A stretch of DNA of 64,000 nucleotides, from NCBI GenBank assembly GCA_035403465.1, contig DAONFG010000005.1:4479-68478 (forward strand). The letters run 5' to 3'. This DNA comes from Spirochaetota bacterium. GTDB taxonomy: Bacteria; Spirochaetota; UBA4802; UBA5550. The notes under the pieces were generated by a model. That model was not told the origin of the DNA. It made no database searches and saw only the letters and a list, made by a program, of their open reading frames with translations. A program made the translations under genes and the position numbers. This document shows positions 5,253-17,118 of the stretch, piece by piece (position 1 is the first letter of the stretch; the number at the start of each line of letters is the position of its first letter).

Positions 5253-5317
5253 CATCATTCAGGTTCAGGCTGCGTGCTTAATCAGCCGTTAATAAATAAA
5301 GTTTTTGCACTTAATTT

Positions 5318-5833
5318 TTGAATCTAAGTTTAATGAGAAATACAGATCAACTTAAATGGCGGGTTAAGGTTTATGGCAACAGGATAATTATTTCCATTAT
5401 CACATTAATTGTTGTAATGACAGCAGTGCTGATTGTAATCAAATCAGGCACCATAATTCCTTTAGACCGTCACGGATCATCAATATCAAATATGGCTATT
5501 GTTTCAATTTTCATCTCGGTGCTCTGTATGCTCATCTTCAAGATAGTGAGGGCCACACTGGACGAAACAGAAAATAAAAACAGGCAGCTTGAGAAATACC
5601 TTGCTGAAATAAACGAAATCGTGAAGACATGCACGCCAGTTGCCCTGACACTCAGGAACACCGCTGATGATCTTGTGTCCAACGCATCGTCATTTTCGGA
5701 CAATGCCCAGACCAAGGCCGCCAGCGCAGAGGAGATCAGCGGCATATCTGAAAGTCTTGTGGGATCGACATGGCTGCTTAATGATGTCCTTACAAAAAAC
5801 GAAGAGAACAAGAAAGAAGAAACGATTGAGTAA
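5318..5833 (+). pseudogene. Truncated methyl-accepting chemotaxis protein-like ORF
   Basis: Two TM segments, then MCP-like heptads (ADDLVSNASSFSDNAQTKAASAEEIS), ending before the signalling hairpin. Confidence 0.5.
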
Positions 5834-5837
5834 AATA

Positions 5838-6488
5838 TTATTCCAGGGTAAATGTAATTGGCAGGTAGTGGGCCATCTTTACCCTCCTGCCGGACTTGTA
5901 CCCCGGCGAAAACCTCATGCGTTTCACGGCCTTGATGGCCTGTTCATTAAAACCATAAGGAGCCTTTCCCGACATTATGTTTGCTGAAACAAGTGATCCG
6001 TTCTCGTCTATCTGCACAAGCACAGTAACCTGGTATTCCCTTATGTTTGCATCCAGCGCCTCGCGCGGGTAATACTGGCGCAGGTCAAAGTCCACAATCG
6101 CACGCGGAGATGCATCGCCATTGAACGAGAAGAGGTAGCCGTCTTTGTCTGTACCGTCACCTGATATCTGGTTCGTGTTGATGTCGCTCTCAACCGGGTC
6201 ATCACCCTCCTTCTTTGCACCCTCAATCCATTCCTGTTTCTCTACCGGTGCCGGTGTTGTGTCCCCGCCGATCAGTTCAGCAGGTATATCCATTTCTATA
6301 TCGGGCCGCTCAAGCTCAAAGGTGTTCTGGAATTCAAGGGTCTCTTTTGAAGTTCCATTGCCTGTAAAAAAATATCCGGACGCGGCGATTACATGGACAA
6401 GCAGGGATATTACGATAGACAGCCTGAACAGGTGCTTAACAAAAAACCTGCGGTTCCTTATACTTATTATAACAGATTCATCGGCCAA
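5838..6488 (-). CDS. tonB: Energy transducer TonB
   Basis: N-terminal TM with SxxxH (SLLVH); C-terminal TonB domain (YYPREALDANIREYQVTVLVQIDENG..AVKRMRFSPG). Confidence 0.85.
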   Translation of the reverse strand: MADESVIISIRNRRFFVKHLFRLSIVISLLVHVIAASGYFFTGNGTSKETLEFQNTFELERPDIEMDIPAELIGGDTTPAPVEKQEWIEGAKKEGDDPVESDINTNQISGDGTDKDGYLFSFNGDASPRAIVDFDLRQYYPREALDANIREYQVTVLVQIDENGSLVSANIMSGKAPYGFNEQAIKAVKRMRFSPGYKSGRRVKMAHYLPITFTLE

Positions 6489-10989: not shown

Positions 10990-11631
10990 ATGCATAACAG
11001 TAAACGCGATTTTGACCTTGCAGCCCTGACATGGGACGAAAAGCCGCAGAGGCTTCAGCTTAACCGCGACATATTCAGAGCCATTGATCAGACTGTACAG
11101 CTGACAGATGGCATCTCCGTCCTTGACTTCGGCTGCGGTACAGGACTGCTCTCGCTGCAGATACTTGAACGCACCGGCAGTGTAACCTGCGCTGACAGTT
11201 CTGCAGGAATGCTCGAAGTCCTTGAATCAAAGGTAAAGGACGCCGGAATAGACGGCGTTACAACAATACACCTGAAGTCCGATGATGCTGAAGGACTTAC
11301 GGGAAGCTATGCTTTAATCACAAGCAGCATGACTTTTCACCATGTGCAGGACGTCCCGCAGCTTGTGAAGAAACTTGCAGGTCACCTGGAGTCCGGCGGA
11401 ACATTATGCGCGGCAGACCTTGACCCTGATGAGGGAAAGTTTCACGAAGACAACACGGGTGTGCACCACTACGGTTTCACGAGAAAAAAGATGATGGAAT
11501 ACTTCCGCGATGCGGGACTCGCTGACGTGAAGGCCACGACAGCTGCGGCAGTTGAAAGGATGAATGCGGCAGGGGAACAGGTGAGTTTTACAGTGTTCCT
11601 TGTTACCGGGACTAAACCTGCTGAACGATGA
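10990..11631 (+). CDS. Class I SAM-dependent methyltransferase
   Basis: VLDFGCGTG motif I, DSSAGML, SSMTFHH; start taken at ATG 10990. Confidence 0.9.
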   Translation: MHNSKRDFDLAALTWDEKPQRLQLNRDIFRAIDQTVQLTDGISVLDFGCGTGLLSLQILERTGSVTCADSSAGMLEVLESKVKDAGIDGVTTIHLKSDDAEGLTGSYALITSSMTFHHVQDVPQLVKKLAGHLESGGTLCAADLDPDEGKFHEDNTGVHHYGFTRKKMMEYFRDAGLADVKATTAAAVERMNAAGEQVSFTVFLVTGTKPAER

Positions 11632-11990
11632 CTCCCGGCAGCGCGCTGATCAGGAATATGCAGTTCAGCAGATCCGGTATTTCGAACATTTTTTCATCTC
11701 CCGGTTTACAAAGTGTGAATATAATTAATGTTCTATTGCGAAACGGTCTCCCGCACTTGCGGGCACTCCCTGATTCGGCAAACCCGGTACGATGCTGTGG
11801 GGGAAAACGGGATGGATTGACTTTTTATATCAACAGTAAAACTTAATTGACACCGGGCACTGCCCTTATCTATACTAATAAGATAAAATGTAAAGTTGCG
11901 TCATTTTCATTCAGCACAAAATGGTACCTGGCGCATAATTAACAGGCAGACCGTAATGAAAAAATCATCCCTGCAAAGAGATATTCATAA

Positions 11991-12965
11991 ATGAACGAGG
12001 AAAAGGTTGAACTTCTCCGTAAAGTGGATATATTTTCACAGCTTGCGGAATACGAGCTTGATACCATTGCAGAATACAGCGAGTATGTGAAGCTGAAAAA
12101 GGGCGCTGCCGTTTTCAGCAACGGTGCGGAATCTAATGAACTGTATGTTGTGGATCGCGGCCGCATAGGTATCATCGGGTTTGAGACCGACGGTGATGCC
12201 ATGATAGCGCAGATTGTCGAAGGGGAGTCTTTCGGTGAGTTGGATTTCCTCGGGCGTACCCCGCGCAACGCCGGCGCATTCGCAGAGGAGGATTCCATGC
12301 TGCTCTGCTTCCCCGGTAAAAGTTTCAAGGCTGACGAAGTATTCCTGAAACATCCGGTCATATTCGCCCGCATGCTCTACAAGCTCCTTGCTACAATATC
12401 ATGCCGCATCTGGAACGTCAACAAGATGCTATACGGAAAAACCGGGTGGCTCCTTGATCTCCACAAGCAGCTTTTAAGCGACAAGATGACCGGGCTGTAC
12501 AACCAGACATTTCTGAAGGAAGATTTCATGAATATGCTTCCGGACATAGGTAAAAGCGTCTCGCTGATTATGATTAAACCTGATAATTTTAAAGAGATTA
12601 ATGATATCTACGGGCATGTTGCAGGCGACCAGGTCCTGAACCTGATGGCAATTTTTTTACAGTCCGAACTGGGAGAGGATGATATTGGCGTTCGCTACCG
12701 GGGTGATGAGTACGCAGCCATACTTATAGACACTGACAGGGACGAGGCCGTTGCAAAAGCCGCGGAAATACGAAAAGCATTCAGGGAGATGGACATATCA
12801 CGAATCACAGGTTCGGGAAAATTGGTTATAACAACAAGCATAGGGATTGCGGTTTACCCCGATGATGCGGACAACAGCTCCGACCTTGTAACAATAGCAT
12901 ATGACAGGATGTACGCCGCTAGAAAAAGCGGAAACATCACATTGGCACAGAACGGGACACCATGA
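11991..12965 (+). CDS. cNMP-binding domain plus degenerate GGDEF domain (RGDEY)
   Basis: FGELDFLGRTPRNA phosphate-binding cassette; SDKMTGLYN; IKPDNFKEINDIYGHVAGD; RYRGDEY at 12693-12713. Confidence 0.88.
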   Translation: MNEEKVELLRKVDIFSQLAEYELDTIAEYSEYVKLKKGAAVFSNGAESNELYVVDRGRIGIIGFETDGDAMIAQIVEGESFGELDFLGRTPRNAGAFAEEDSMLLCFPGKSFKADEVFLKHPVIFARMLYKLLATISCRIWNVNKMLYGKTGWLLDLHKQLLSDKMTGLYNQTFLKEDFMNMLPDIGKSVSLIMIKPDNFKEINDIYGHVAGDQVLNLMAIFLQSELGEDDIGVRYRGDEYAAILIDTDRDEAVAKAAEIRKAFREMDISRITGSGKLVITTSIGIAVYPDDADNSSDLVTIAYDRMYAARKSGNITLAQNGTP

Positions 12966-13924
12966 TAAAATACTTCAGGCAGCTTGAAATATTCAAAGCA
13001 TTAAGCGATGAGGAGCTTTCCCTGCTGGAGCACTGCTCCTCTGTAAAAACATATAATACCGATGACGTCATACTCGGTCACAGCAGTACAAAACGTGACC
13101 TGTACATAATTCTCAGCGGCCGGGTGCTCAGCACCCTTAAGCTGCCCGGAACCCTTGACCGCAAGTTCGGAGAGCTGGTGTCCGGAGATTTCTTCGGCGA
13201 GAGTTCTGTCTTCGGGAACCTCCCCCTTTTCAATACATACACCGCGGCAGACAAAGCTGAACTGCTCATCATAAACGAAAAAGGATTCTCCGGACTGATC
13301 GAAAAAAATCCGGCTGCCGCAACAAAACTCATCTCGGTTCTTCTGAGCGGAACCATCAGGCAGTTCCGCAAGTCGAGCGGCTTCCTTGCACAGGTTGTAC
13401 AGTGGGGAGAAAATGCAAGCCGCCGCACAATCACGGACGAGCTGACAGGTATTTATAACCGCGCATTCCTTGACGATGCCGTTGAAAGTTTTTTCAACAT
13501 ATCAAAGAGCAACTACAAGCCGGTCTCACTTCTCATGCTCGATGTTGACAACTGCCGTAAAATCAATGAAACGCTGGACCATGAAACAGGCAACAGGGTG
13601 ATCTGCGAATTTGCAGCAATCATAAAAAACATAATAAGCAGGCAGGGGATAATCGCAAGGTACGGCGGGGACGAGTTTTCCATACTTCTGCCTGAAACCA
13701 ACAGGGAGCAGGCGCTGGCTATTGCCGAAGAGATACGCAGGACAGTTGATGATTATGATTTTTCAGGGTTTCTGAAGGGGAACGATATAAAAATCACAAC
13801 AAGTATCGGGGTCAGTTCGTTCCCGGAAACGGCAACTGAACTTGAAGCCTTCAGGACAAAGGCGGACGATTCCCTTTACAGGGCCAAAGAGCAGGGGAAG
13901 AACCGCATCGCATGCGTTGATTAG
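12962..13924 (+). CDS. cNMP-binding-like domain plus GGDEF diguanylate cyclase domain
   Basis: FGESSVFGNLPLF (no Arg); TDELTGIYNR; LDVDNCRKINETLDHETGN; GGDEF at 13664-13678; ATGA overlap with the upstream gene. Confidence 0.88.
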   Translation: MIKYFRQLEIFKALSDEELSLLEHCSSVKTYNTDDVILGHSSTKRDLYIILSGRVLSTLKLPGTLDRKFGELVSGDFFGESSVFGNLPLFNTYTAADKAELLIINEKGFSGLIEKNPAAATKLISVLLSGTIRQFRKSSGFLAQVVQWGENASRRTITDELTGIYNRAFLDDAVESFFNISKSNYKPVSLLMLDVDNCRKINETLDHETGNRVICEFAAIIKNIISRQGIIARYGGDEFSILLPETNREQALAIAEEIRRTVDDYDFSGFLKGNDIKITTSIGVSSFPETATELEAFRTKADDSLYRAKEQGKNRIACVD

Positions 13925-14040: not shown

Positions 14041-14598
14041 ATGATATACACTGTAACAAGCCTGGTTCTTATCTTCCTTGCCAGGGTCACTGATGTCTCC
14101 ATCGGCACATTCAGGATCATACTCGTGTCGCGGGGATACCAGCGCATAGCCCCATTTCTCGGGTTCTTCGAGGTGCTCATATGGATCACTGCAATCAGCC
14201 ACGTCATGAAAAATCTCAACAGCGTATGGAGCTACATTTTCTACGCCGCCGGTTTTGCCACGGGAACATTTGCCGGCATGAAGCTCGAATCCATAATATC
14301 CATAGGCTACCAGTCAGTAAGAATAATACCGACAGAAAAGGTCACGGCCCTTCCCCTGGTGCTGCGCGAGGAGGGTTTCGGCATAACCACGGTCTCCGGC
14401 AGGGGAATGAAAGATAACGTCGTGATCATATATACCACCGTGCCCAGGAGCAGGGTGAAGCAGCTGCTGCAGATAGTTGAGACGTTTGAACCGAACGCGT
14501 TCATAACCATCGAGGATGTACGATCGCACAAATCCGGTTTTGTATCGCAGCCCGGATATTCCGCGAAGACGGAAAAAGGCATTGCAAAAAGGAAGTAA
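14041..14598 (+). CDS. DUF2179/DUF5698 (YebE-like) membrane protein
   Basis: LARVTDVSIGTFRII..GFFEVLIW..YAAGFATGTFAG; C-terminal GFGITTVSGRG..PNAFITIEDVR. Confidence 0.85.
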   Translation: MIYTVTSLVLIFLARVTDVSIGTFRIILVSRGYQRIAPFLGFFEVLIWITAISHVMKNLNSVWSYIFYAAGFATGTFAGMKLESIISIGYQSVRIIPTEKVTALPLVLREEGFGITTVSGRGMKDNVVIIYTTVPRSRVKQLLQIVETFEPNAFITIEDVRSHKSGFVSQPGYSAKTEKGIAKRK

Positions 14599-15022
14599 AT
14601 TATCTGAATGCAGCTGCCCGCAGTGCATAAGCGCATGCAGACAGGATCCCGGCAGGCTTGTGCCGGCCGACCTGCCCGTGCTTGCCGCGTTCCTTGACCT
14701 CTCTGTTGATGAACTCATAGCCGCGTACCTTGTCAAGATCCCGCTTTCAGAGAAGGAGAAGGTCTATGCACTTGCCCCTGCAAAACTCAAAGGGAAAAGG
14801 TTCCTCGCAGACCCGGGAACAGTTGTACGGGCATACTATACGTCAGAGCGCGGCACCTGCGTCTTTCTTGACGAAAACGGTCTCTGCACTGTTCATGGTG
14901 CCAAACCATTTGAATGCGGCGCGTACATGGGATGTAAAAATACATTCCTTGGAAAACCATACAGGGAAAGACTGGTCGAAGAGTATTTCATGCAGAAGTG
15001 GAAAAAGTTCAGGCAGGTATAA
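14582..15022 (+). CDS. YkgJ-like Cys-cluster (putative Zn/Fe-S) protein
   Basis: CSCPQCISAC..CVFLDENGLCTVHGAKPFEC; probable TTG start at 14582 (ORF track start 14516). Confidence 0.7.
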   Translation: MQKGSKLSECSCPQCISACRQDPGRLVPADLPVLAAFLDLSVDELIAAYLVKIPLSEKEKVYALAPAKLKGKRFLADPGTVVRAYYTSERGTCVFLDENGLCTVHGAKPFECGAYMGCKNTFLGKPYRERLVEEYFMQKWKKFRQV

Positions 15023-15422: not shown

Positions 15423-16562
15423 TCAATCAAGTCTGAAAGTGATATTGATAGATGTTCCAGTGGCTCCTTCAACATGGAATTCACCGCCGATCTGCTCTGC
15501 AAGCATGCGCACAAGCATAAATCCCATGCTCCCGGTTGTGTACGGATCAAATCCTTCCGGGAGCCCGGATCCTGAGTCCGAAACATGGAGGCATGCCGAG
15601 GATCCGTCTGCATGGAGGCGCACCATGATCTCTCCCGGCACATTCCCGGGATATGCATATTTCAGCGCGTTTGTAATAAGCTCATTCAGTATAAGGCCCA
15701 GCGGAACAGCGCGCCTGGTCTCGATCCTGATGTCTGCGAGTTCTGTCGAAAGACTGATCCTGCCTGTCTCGGGCATGTATGTTTTCAGAATCGAGCCTGC
15801 CAGGTCTCCTATGTAAAGGTTCAGGTCGATGTGAGTGACATCATCCGAAAGATAGAGCCGTTCATAAATCCCCATAATTGACGAGATCCTGCTGCGCGCA
15901 TCGGCAAGAATACTCCTTGCAAGGTCATCTGTAACCCGTTCCCTCTCCAGGCTCAGCAGCCCTGACACCACCCCCAGGTTATTCTTCACGCGGTGGTGCA
16001 GTTCCTTCATTAAAATATCCCTGTGCGAAAGGAGCTGCCGCATTGCAGCCTCATCTTTTTTGAGCTGTTCATTCGCAGCTTCAAGTTCACGGTTTGTCCT
16101 CTGCAGTTCATCTATGGTCTGCTTCAGCTCAGCGTTCACTACCTTGATCCGGTGTTTTCTCTCCTTCAGGTCTTTATGCGCATCGAAGAGTTTAAAGGCC
16201 ATCTTGATTGATGCGTCAAGTACGCGTATACCTGAGTTCTTTACAACGTAACCGTACGAGGTGATCTTTTCAGTCCTGCCGACCACATCCTTTTCGGTAT
16301 GCGACGACAGGAAGAGTACGGGGATGTCATGGTTGAAAAGTATCCTGTTTGCGGCTTCAGTGCCGTCGATTCCTTCACCAAGGTCAATATCTATGAGGAT
16401 CAGGTCGTACAGGTCACACTTTTCATCAATCACCCCTACTGCTTTTTCCCCGGAATTTACATGCGTCACCGCGTAACCCTCATTACGCAGCTGCTGTGTT
16501 TCGAGCAGCGCTATTACAGGTTCATCCTCAACAAGCAGAATCCTTTTAAAATTACCCTCCAT
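15423..16562 (-). CDS. Receiver domain plus HisKA_2 histidine kinase
   Basis: ILLVEDE..LILIDIDL..K receiver; coiled coil; ELHHRVKNNL; NELITNALKYA, DSGSG. Confidence 0.9.
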   Translation of the reverse strand: MEGNFKRILLVEDEPVIALLETQQLRNEGYAVTHVNSGEKAVGVIDEKCDLYDLILIDIDLGEGIDGTEAANRILFNHDIPVLFLSSHTEKDVVGRTEKITSYGYVVKNSGIRVLDASIKMAFKLFDAHKDLKERKHRIKVVNAELKQTIDELQRTNRELEAANEQLKKDEAAMRQLLSHRDILMKELHHRVKNNLGVVSGLLSLERERVTDDLARSILADARSRISSIMGIYERLYLSDDVTHIDLNLYIGDLAGSILKTYMPETGRISLSTELADIRIETRRAVPLGLILNELITNALKYAYPGNVPGEIMVRLHADGSSACLHVSDSGSGLPEGFDPYTTGSMGFMLVRMLAEQIGGEFHVEGATGTSINITFRLD

Positions 16563-16578: not shown

Positions 16579-17118
16579 CTACTGGTATGCGCCTTTTAAC
16601 AGGCCGGGGATGTTGTAGAGTTCTTCAATCCTGGCTATTCCAGTCACAGTGACGTCAAACTGATCCAGCTCCCTTCCCATCTTCTCAATTGAGGCCTGGT
16701 CCATCTTTGAATCAGCAAGTGGAAATAATTCATGGATTTCCTTCTCAATATGTAAGCGCGCCCTGGCAGTATAGTCTTCCGCAGCCTTAATAAACTTGTC
16801 CCTGTGAAAGGGTATGTGAGTCAGTGCATCCTCCATGAGACGTGTGTAACCCTGCAGCGCGTGGTGCTGCGCGGTCAGGGCTTCCAGCATTCCGTTCTGG
16901 TGAAGTATACCTGCATTCTCCATCGCAGGGAACACAATGCTCTCCTCCCTTGCCCGGTGATACTTCCCGGTGAACGAAACAATAAAATCAAGGATTATAG
17001 TCAGGTCTTCAGCAGGGACATCGTTCCCGGCTTCCATATTTCTGCAGACAGACTCAAGAACTTCCAGAAAATCAAGAATGGCATCATGTTCTCTTTTAAG
17101 AAGATCAGCCGTTTTCAT
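16579..17118 (-). CDS. Hemerythrin-domain protein
   Basis: LKREHDAI..YHRAREESIVFP..AQHH..LHIEKEIHELFP. Confidence 0.8.
   Translation of the reverse strand: MKTADLLKREHDAILDFLEVLESVCRNMEAGNDVPAEDLTIILDFIVSFTGKYHRAREESIVFPAMENAGILHQNGMLEALTAQHHALQGYTRLMEDALTHIPFHRDKFIKAAEDYTARARLHIEKEIHELFPLADSKMDQASIEKMGRELDQFDVTVTGIARIEELYNIPGLLKGAYQ

Follow-up and report, generated by a model that had tools for sequence, protein, structure and literature searches.

Two overlapping genes encode cNMP-GGDEF proteins

The DNA analyzed here, referred to as the window, is a stretch of 64,000 nucleotides from a Spirochaetota bacterium (assembly GCA_035403465.1, contig DAONFG010000005.1, positions 4,479 to 68,478). 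It contains two adjacent genes, A and B, each encoding a cyclic nucleoside monophosphate (cNMP)-binding fold followed by a domain of the GGDEF fold (Table 1). The two full-length proteins share 27% identity (E 7e-39), and their stalks align without gaps (residues 125–163 of A against 120–158 of B). Judging from sequence comparisons, we consider it fairly probable that A and B assemble into an asymmetric GGDEF enzyme as its two different subunits. They belong to an old Spirochaetota family of paired or fused cNMP-GGDEF proteins.

Table 1. Coordinates of the gene pair, its domains, its surroundings and two related pairs (window positions unless a related locus is named)
Feature	Coordinates	Strand	Description
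Gene A	11991..12965	+	324 aa; A-type cNMP_binding domain and degenerate GGDEF domain (KPDNFK / RGDEY); putative sensor-competent subunit without metal site
Gene B	12962..13924	+	320 aa; B-type, degenerate cNMP_binding domain and catalytically complete GGDEF domain, N at D344 position
A/B ATGA start/stop overlap	12962..12965	+	translational coupling implied
A cNMP-binding domain, aa 33-113	12087..12329	+	PF00027, 54.1 bits (Pfam cut-off 27.5); cassette intact, F81 G82 E83 ... R92 N93 A94
A GGDEF-fold domain, aa 163-314	12477..12932	+	Pfam PF00990, 111.4 bits (Pfam cut-off 23.8), and residue mapping
B cNMP-binding-fold domain, aa 29-116	13046..13309	+	PF00027, 39.1 bits; cassette Arg replaced by L89, cassette Ala by N91
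B GGDEF domain, aa 157-315	13430..13906	+	Pfam PF00990, 134.8 bits, and residue mapping
Best sigma-70-like promoter match 5' of A	11847..11876	+	TTGACA, 18 nt spacer, TATACT; 11/12; consensus match only
DUF5698/DUF2179 membrane protein gene	14041..14598	+	Pfam; 117 nt downstream of B
Treponema denticola ATCC 35405 pair (L105)	A-type AAS13243.1 4292-5260; B-type AAS13242.1 3331-4299	minus	overlapping genes, 322 aa each
Second pair of the window's genome (L023, G000 contig 3)	3723-4712 and 4709-5677		4-nt overlap

Residue mapping reveals complementary losses

GGDEF cyclases have been described as symmetric homodimers. The Glu at the fourth place of the GGDEF signature is proposed to be the general base, reaching over to the partner subunit to act on the 3'-OH of the nucleoside triphosphate (NTP) bound there (Hallberg et al. 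2019, PMC6456294). In 94% of cyclases, the Asn of DxLTGLxN is followed directly by a conserved Arg, which stacks on the base of the opposite half-site (Hallberg et al. 2019, PMC6456294); the position of this Arg is called the cross-dimer position below. Equivalences to PleD, whose numbering is used throughout, were read from the sequence and from alignments, made with HMMER, to GGDEF domains of solved structure (GacA 6d9m, 3ign and PleD 1w25 among the matches).

In A, the metal ligand D327 is replaced by K196, within an IKPD motif that continues with P197 and D198, while K332, N335 and D344 are retained as K201, N204 and D213. The replacement of G368 by R237 gives the signature R237-G-D-E-Y241 (RGDEY), which does not have both glycines of GG[DE]EF. 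B retains D327 (D194), D196, N335 (N202), K442 (K309) and a GGDEF signature at residues 235–239. It carries R199 in place of K332, D206 in place of G339, N211 in place of D344 (HETGN) and K313 in place of R446, and N211 aligns to Ser348 of GacA. B consequently lacks the N335 and D344 guanine-reader pair, having Asn at 344, whereas A has both residues. An initial annotation of this DNA had described the residues of both proteins and the ATGA overlap, and the alignments and sequence bore out all of these statements; the mapping added the changes of K442 to R311 and of R446 to N315 in A, as well as the cross-dimer residues, Q172 in A and R167 in B. Also in agreement with that annotation, the RxxD I-site expected five residues before the GGDEF signature is absent from both A (GEDD) and B (SRQG).

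The sensor domains differ in the opposite direction. The phosphate-binding cassette of A, FGE...PR92-N-A, satisfies the G-E ... R-[S/T/A/N]-A pattern, while that of B, FGE...PL89-F-N, does not satisfy the pattern of a functional cassette. Neither protein alone combines a ligand-competent cNMP domain with a complete GGDEF domain.

The substitutions are fixed among orthologs

Alignments of 120 orthologs of A and 120 of B were examined for these positions. Each protein is represented by more than 100 ortholog clusters at 50–90% identity, whose labels, where given, are Spirochaetes or Spirochaetota metagenome bins. All 120 orthologs of A carry K327, P328, D329, K332, N335, D336, H340, D344 and E371. 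Position 368 is occupied by Arg in 95, Lys in 8, His in 7 and Gly in 7 of them, position 442 by Arg in 108, position 446 by Gly in 108 and Asn in 11, and the cross-dimer position by Gln in 88 and Arg in 21. The cNMP cassette of A is likewise preserved, with Gly in 120, Glu in 116, Arg in 113 (His in 7) and Ala in 114.

D327, D329, N335 and a GGDEF signature with Asp as its central residue are found in every ortholog of B. Its cross-dimer Arg is present in 119 of the 120 and R332 in 110, and position 344 is Asn in 110 and Asp in 10. The position of the sensor Arg is variable: the six commonest residues are Ser (31), Leu (25), Pro (16), Ala (12), Val (11) and Gly (6), Arg not being among them, and the B protein of the related locus L009 does have Arg there. 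A is better conserved than B in all 25 orthologous loci compared, with mean identities to the window proteins of 63.8% and 56.4%, respectively.

Since the same substitutions are fixed across 120 orthologs of each protein, they go far beyond chance, decay can be ruled out, and the substitutions in A and B are under selection. Scattered, non-conserved substitutions in homologous pairs, which the initial annotation had regarded as typical of decay, are not what the alignments contain: K327, K332, N335 and D344 of A and the GGDEF signature of B are invariant, and N344 of B is nearly so.

A and B belong to a family of paired and fused proteins

For a wider survey, A-type proteins were defined by KPD[ND]FK, K332, N335, D344 and a residue other than Gly, mostly Arg, at 368. 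B-type proteins were defined by D327, GGDEF and the cross-dimer Arg, and the family by an A-type gene that lies directly 5' of a B-type gene or is fused to it. The window pair has all of these features. A scan with A-type peptide patterns (KPDNFKxIN and a second pattern) over one genome per prokaryotic species matched at least 598 stretches; among the matches listed, 567 code for proteins related to A. With one exception, from a bin labeled Parachlamydiales, the 80 best matches all carry the label of Spirochaetota bins. The exception is a 4.3 kb contig (L048, JAFGQY010000093.1) carrying one A/B pair, and all other loci bear Spirochaetota labels; the Parachlamydiales label probably stems from faulty binning, although transfer is conceivable.

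The family counts given below cover 104 loci with 104 A-type units, the window pair being L001. In the orthologous loci L002–L011, the A ortholog lies directly upstream of the B ortholog on the same strand in every case, and more distant tandem pairs are present in most relatives. A B-type comes directly after the A-type in 85 of the 104 loci, as a separate gene in 78 and fused into one open reading frame in 7. Among the 78 tandem pairs, 39 overlap, 17 of these by exactly 4 nt with starts called mechanically. The fused form is represented by 58 database protein clusters of 642–686 aa at 51–100% identity. Its Pfam architecture is cNMP-GGDEF-cNMP-GGDEF, with the A-half always first. No B was detected for 19 of the A-type units, approximately 8 of which run into an assembly gap or the end of their contig. 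An unpaired sister clade of A-types (L043, L046, L047, L050, L052, L055, L056, L063, L064 and L080) retains K327, K332, N335, D344 and the RxxD I-site and has G, Q, H, K or D at position 368.

In a tree of all 191 units, one branch with a support of 100 separates A-type from B-type. This single branch points to one old duplication, which would have been followed by co-inheritance in the A-then-B order and by fusion in one clade.

K327, D329, K332, N335 and D344 are invariant in the 104 A-type units, and E371 is present in 103. Position 368 is mostly Arg, 442 is Arg, 446 is Gly and 370 is Asp in 74 and Asn in 30, and the reading frame of the A-type genes is intact everywhere. The cross-dimer position of the A-types is variable, with an entropy of 2.27 bits. 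All 87 B-type units carry D327, D329, GGDEF and the cross-dimer Arg, and 86 carry K442. Their position 332 is variable (R65, H7, S5, G3, T3, K2; entropy 1.45 bits), and position 344 is Asp in 57 and Asn in 30. A combination of N344 with a lost sensor Arg in the second protein, which the initial annotation had proposed to look for in tandem pairs, characterizes the ortholog group of the window but not the family at large.

Of 301 genomes sampled from the phylum, 71 contain a DNA pattern for KPDNFK, compared with about a dozen matches of a reversed control. The figure of 71 is an upper estimate because some matches arise by chance, such as those in an ankyrin-repeat protein (L107) and in a 1341-aa membrane protein (L110). 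One match lies on the 2,843,201-bp chromosome of Treponema denticola ATCC 35405, where the A-type protein lacks the sensor Arg and the B-type protein has both the sensor Arg and D344. The genome of the window itself encodes a second pair, in which the A-type protein has KPDNFK, a MGNEL signature and Phe in place of the sensor Arg, and the B-type protein has GGDEF, D344 and an intact sensor Arg. The presence of two divergent pairs in one genome raises the question of how cross-pairing is avoided.

In several lineages, B-type relatives are longer, approximately 715–730 aa, with the architecture cNMP-GGDEF-DHH-DHHA1 (L059:6972-9125, L098:3797-5986, L067, L077, L096, L097, L101 and P0301-P0307), and are still encoded directly 3' of an A-type gene. 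This architecture suggests that the product of the module, or a linear intermediate, is degraded by a DHH-type enzyme.

Ancient and lineage-specific traits

The distribution of these residues indicates that the division into a catalytically dead A and a live B, together with the change of K332 to Arg in B, are ancient traits of the family. The division of the sensors is a later, lineage-specific step. Among 85 pairs, the sensor Arg is present in both proteins in 49, in A only in 25, in B only in 11 and in neither in none. In other lineages, including T. denticola and the second pair of the window's genome, it has been lost from A and not from B. The traits that appear specific to the lineage of the window are N344, the loss of the sensor Arg and the loss of the I-site, all in B; its ortholog group also has Gln, not Arg, at the cross-dimer position of A. 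Outside this group, Asn at position 344 of B occurs in seven loci (L019, L020, L041, L058, L060, L076 and L100), and many A-type and B-type relatives outside the lineage keep the RxxD I-site. The reciprocal loss of function described in the initial annotation accordingly holds for the lineage of the window. It is only in part a trait of this pair, since the dead/live split and the B K332-to-Arg change are ancient and A has lost the sensor Arg elsewhere.

Correlated changes were sought with phylogenetically independent pairs on a tree of the 85 concatenated pairs. The change of D344 to Asn in B is not correlated with the loss of the sensor Arg in B (median p = 1). Asp and Asn have interchanged at this position at least seven times in the family, without a correlated change in the partner. 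A raw association of N344 with the residue at the A cross-dimer position (19 pairs with a residue other than Arg or Lys, 10 pairs with Arg or Lys) was attributed to shared ancestry by the same test.

A proposed asymmetric heteromer

Across the family, conservation sorts by composite half-site and not by protein. One such site, formed by K332, N335 and D344 of A (104/104) together with the cross-dimer Arg of B (87/87), is invariant. The other, formed by positions 332 and 344 of B together with the cross-dimer residue of A, is variable. These findings support the view that A and B have been locked together in evolution as a pair whose retained functions complement each other. In our estimation, an A:B heteromer gated through the sensor of A is the best reading and a reasonably probable one, because of the half-site pattern, the natural fusions and the survival of at least one sensor in every pair.

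In this heteromer, A and B would pair through their cNMP domains and their helical stalks of equal length. The GGDEF domain of A should be unable to hold catalytic Mg2+ and may still bind a guanine nucleotide, with Lys and Arg replacing the metal. Its pocket is probably a metal-free guanine binder, since D327 and often D370 are lost while Lys and Arg are gained. The invariant Arg of B would stack on the guanine held by A, and the variable residue of A would face the base held by B. In the lineage of the window, only A is predicted to bind cyclic AMP (cAMP) or cyclic GMP (cGMP), and so gating is assigned to A: the bound ligand would set the register of the stalks and thereby gate the single complete catalytic half-site in B. 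With 11 class III nucleotidyl cyclase domains encoded in the genome, a cNMP input to A is plausible.

In the half-site of B, Asn211, unlike Asp, could pair with the Watson-Crick edge of either guanine (O6, N1-H) or adenine (N1, N6-H). From this hydrogen-bond logic, the half-site is probably tolerant of both purines. One complete half-site would form one phosphodiester bond and yield a linear pppGpN; for a cyclic product, the intermediate would have to flip or the B subunits of different complexes would have to meet. The candidate products are cyclic di-GMP (c-di-GMP) formed via higher-order B:B encounters, linear pppGpN and a mixed cyclic dinucleotide. A more specific form of this mechanism, which we regard as unlikely, is an obligatory asymmetric A:B dimer whose product, controlled by cAMP or cGMP via A, would not be c-di-GMP but either linear pppGpN or a mixed cyclic dinucleotide of G and A. 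In such a division of labor, A would hold GTP without metal, with K196 and R237 in place of Mg2+, and offer its 3'-OH. B, as the sole half-site with metals, a complete GGDEF and Asn211, would supply the attacked NTP. The DHH/DHHA1 domains fused to B-type relatives would then represent the matching degrading activity. If this form were true, about a quarter of the sampled Spirochaetota genomes (an upper estimate), that of T. denticola among them, would encode a second-messenger synthase of a new class.

Several points weigh against an A:B heteromer. Approximately 10 A-type genes with sufficient flanks, from the sister clade, genuinely lack an adjacent B. The independent-pairs test detected no co-variation between position 344 of B and the cross-dimer residue of A (median p = 1). 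An AlphaFold2 model of the natural fusion P0241, based on a 57-sequence alignment, has a mean predicted local distance difference test score (pLDDT) of 80.6, with the individual domains well predicted, and a predicted template modeling score (pTM) of 0.44, which gives the domain arrangement no confidence. Fusion and adjacency prove functional coupling, not GGDEF–GGDEF pairing, and in a parallel homodimer of the fused chain the A halves could just as well pair with each other, as could the B halves. Moreover, the canonical symmetric mechanism does not allow one complete half-site alone to produce a cyclic dinucleotide. The sensor–catalyst heterodimer put forward in the initial annotation is favored by the locked pair, the fusions and the half-site conservation, but it gains nothing from the structural model.

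Alternative explanations

The main alternative, itself fairly unlikely, is that A and B each form a homodimer of their own and are linked through function only. B2 would be an ordinary diguanylate cyclase with a vestigial sensor, consistent with its full set of canonical catalytic residues, including the cross-dimer Arg. A2 would serve as a receptor or regulator under cNMP control, and its degenerate pocket would sense a guanine nucleotide such as GTP or c-di-GMP, in the manner of PdeA/CC3396 and FimX; degenerate GGDEF domains that sense GTP are indeed known (PMC8846402; PMC12943098). The genes would stay together or fuse because enzyme and receptor share one pathway. The unpaired A-type genes, the RxxD I-site retained in many relatives of both types, the lack of cross-subunit co-variation and the failure of the AlphaFold2 model to show an A:B interface all fit this arrangement. 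It leaves B of the window's lineage as a cyclase with neither a working sensor nor an I-site, however, and yet its full-length cNMP fold is under selection. The trans-acting general base E371, which A keeps in all 120 orthologs and in 103 of the 104 family members, would be needless in a pure receptor. It is also odd for an autonomous B2 enzyme that position 332 varies in B while being invariant in A, and in no pair have both sensor Arg residues been lost.

The substitution at position 344 of B allows another homodimeric scheme, in which a promiscuous, Hypr-like B2 makes 3',3'-cGAMP (cyclic GMP-AMP), or cyclic di-AMP, through N211, and A is only a regulator. The alignment of N211 with Ser348 of GacA and the occurrence of N344 in 110 of 120 orthologs accord with this scheme, as does the central Asp of the B signature, a feature of all natural Ser/Thr variants (PMC6456294). 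We nevertheless judge it highly unlikely. Hypr enzymes are defined by Ser or Thr at the D344 position (PMC6456294), and it is Ser at this position in combination with a cross-dimer residue other than Arg that leads to cGAMP (Hallberg et al. 2019, PMC6456294). As its sequence reads, B is not a Hypr enzyme by this definition, given that it has Asn for Ser/Thr and that its cross-dimer Arg is retained (119/120), a residue that shifts the product of Hypr enzymes toward c-di-GMP. The repeated interchange of Asp and Asn, at least seven times in the family and without a correlated change in the partner, further suggests that the two residues are near-equivalent. Finally, the absence of the metal ligand D327, G368 and R446 from A might be taken to mean that A is a decaying duplicate with functionless substitutions. 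This explanation is barely credible and was rejected: the substitutions are fixed in the 120 orthologs and 104 family members, A is the better conserved protein in 25 of 25 loci, its reading frame is intact and the A-types form a single old lineage.

Genomic context

The promoter match upstream of A (Table 1) lies in a 359-nt gap between A and a methyltransferase gene ending at 11631. Among the candidates for conserved neighbors, only the DUF5698/DUF2179 membrane protein gene recurs in related loci. The two closest loci have homologs with 49–88% identity on the downstream side of B, and homologs with 49–57% identity lie directly upstream of the unpaired A-type gene in L043, L046, L047, L050, L052, L056, L063 and L080 (at about 5260-5990 in most). 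This membrane protein may be functionally linked to A-type proteins. The TonB-dependent receptor, methyltransferase, response-regulator/kinase and hemerythrin genes of the window were not found in the related loci. The minus strand carries a receiver fused to a HisKA_2/HATPase kinase core (15423-16562) and an adjoining hemerythrin-domain protein (16579-17118), and an open reading frame with a CxxCxxCC domain (14516-15022) overlaps the end of the DUF2179 gene. The receiver-kinase, hemerythrin and CxxCxxCC genes do not recur in related loci beyond the same genus.

The genome of the window (3.46 Mb, 89% complete) contains 26 GGDEF domains above the Pfam cut-off, in addition to the 11 class III cyclase domains, and its nucleotide-signaling network is very dense for its size. 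A search for the c-di-GMP-I/GEMM-I riboswitch found no match in the genome, a negative without weight because control genomes were equally silent; a search of the whole window against Rfam also found no match.

Comparison with known systems

A full-text literature search found no paper using the term 'heterodimeric diguanylate cyclase'. A 2022 review of sensory inputs gives only Bd1971 (cNMP-EAL) for the cNMP sensor domain and does not contain the word 'heterodimer' (PMC8846402). In the abstract of a Xanthomonas oryzae study and in passages of a Leptospira paper (PMC12943098), 'tandem GGDEF' denotes GGDEF-EAL proteins. Searches for D344N or other D344 mutants returned unrelated proteins only. 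The family of paired or fused dead/live cNMP-GGDEF proteins is thus widespread and apparently undescribed, and the window pair is a lineage-specific variant of it, with N344 and a sensor only in A.

The nearest characterized protein is XC_0249 of Xanthomonas campestris, a single-gene cNMP-GGDEF cyclase that shares its architecture with A and B and makes more cyclic di-GMP when its cNMP domain has bound cyclic GMP (An et al. 2013, EMBO J, PMC3770947). XC_0249 combines a working sensor and cyclase in one protein, whereas here the functions are split over two co-inherited paralogs, one of which has a remodeled, metal-less pocket. The Hypr enzymes GacA of Geobacter, Bd0367 of Bdellovibrio and GacB of Myxococcus, the last described in a preprint as cAMP-activated (bioRxiv 10.1101/600031), resemble B in having the D344 residue replaced and a GGDEF signature with a central Asp, and GacA is the best match of A in the PDB. 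They carry Ser or Thr and usually a cross-dimer residue other than Arg within the same homodimeric protein, while B has Asn and Arg, and the residue other than Arg (Q172) is located in the partner A.

Catalytically dead GGDEF folds that keep nucleotide binding and act as allosteric sensors are known from PdeA/CC3396 of Caulobacter and FimX of Pseudomonas (PMC12943098; PMC8846402). There the sensing domain regulates an EAL domain of its own polypeptide, whereas the A-type domains are partnered with a live GGDEF paralog and have an invariant signature of their own, KPD[ND]FK and R-G-[DN]-E, with Lys and Arg for metal ligands. Receptors of the PelD/PopA type, which also have a degenerate GGDEF domain, bind through an RxxD I-site that A and B lack. 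The combination of GGDEF with DHH/DHHA1 in some B-type relatives is shared with GdpP/YybT (PAS - degenerate GGDEF - DHH/DHHA1). In these relatives, however, the DHH domain adjoins a catalytically complete GGDEF domain, and the B protein of the window has no DHH domain.

The proposed heteromer, if true, would link cAMP or cGMP to dinucleotide signaling in spirochetes and, should its product not be c-di-GMP, represent a new signaling nucleotide pathway. It would also provide a natural system for dissecting the roles of the half-sites in dinucleotide synthesis, including those of the trans-acting general base and the cross-dimer Arg (Hallberg et al. 2019). The T. denticola pair (AAS13243.1 and AAS13242.1) makes the family accessible to testing in a cultured organism and with recombinant proteins.

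Class III nucleotidyl cyclases, such as the C1/C2 domains of mammalian adenylyl cyclase and the alpha/beta subunits of soluble guanylyl cyclase, are pseudo-heterodimers in which one site is complete and catalytic and the other degenerate and regulatory. Their paralogous palm-type domains, separate or fused, are comparable to A and B. They belong to another branch of the fold and have a different reaction geometry, in that a GGDEF half-site binds a whole NTP and a cyclic dinucleotide requires two half-sites. If the heteromer exists, the dead/live subunit pair with its natural fusions would be the GGDEF counterpart of the adenylyl cyclase C1/C2 pseudo-heterodimer.

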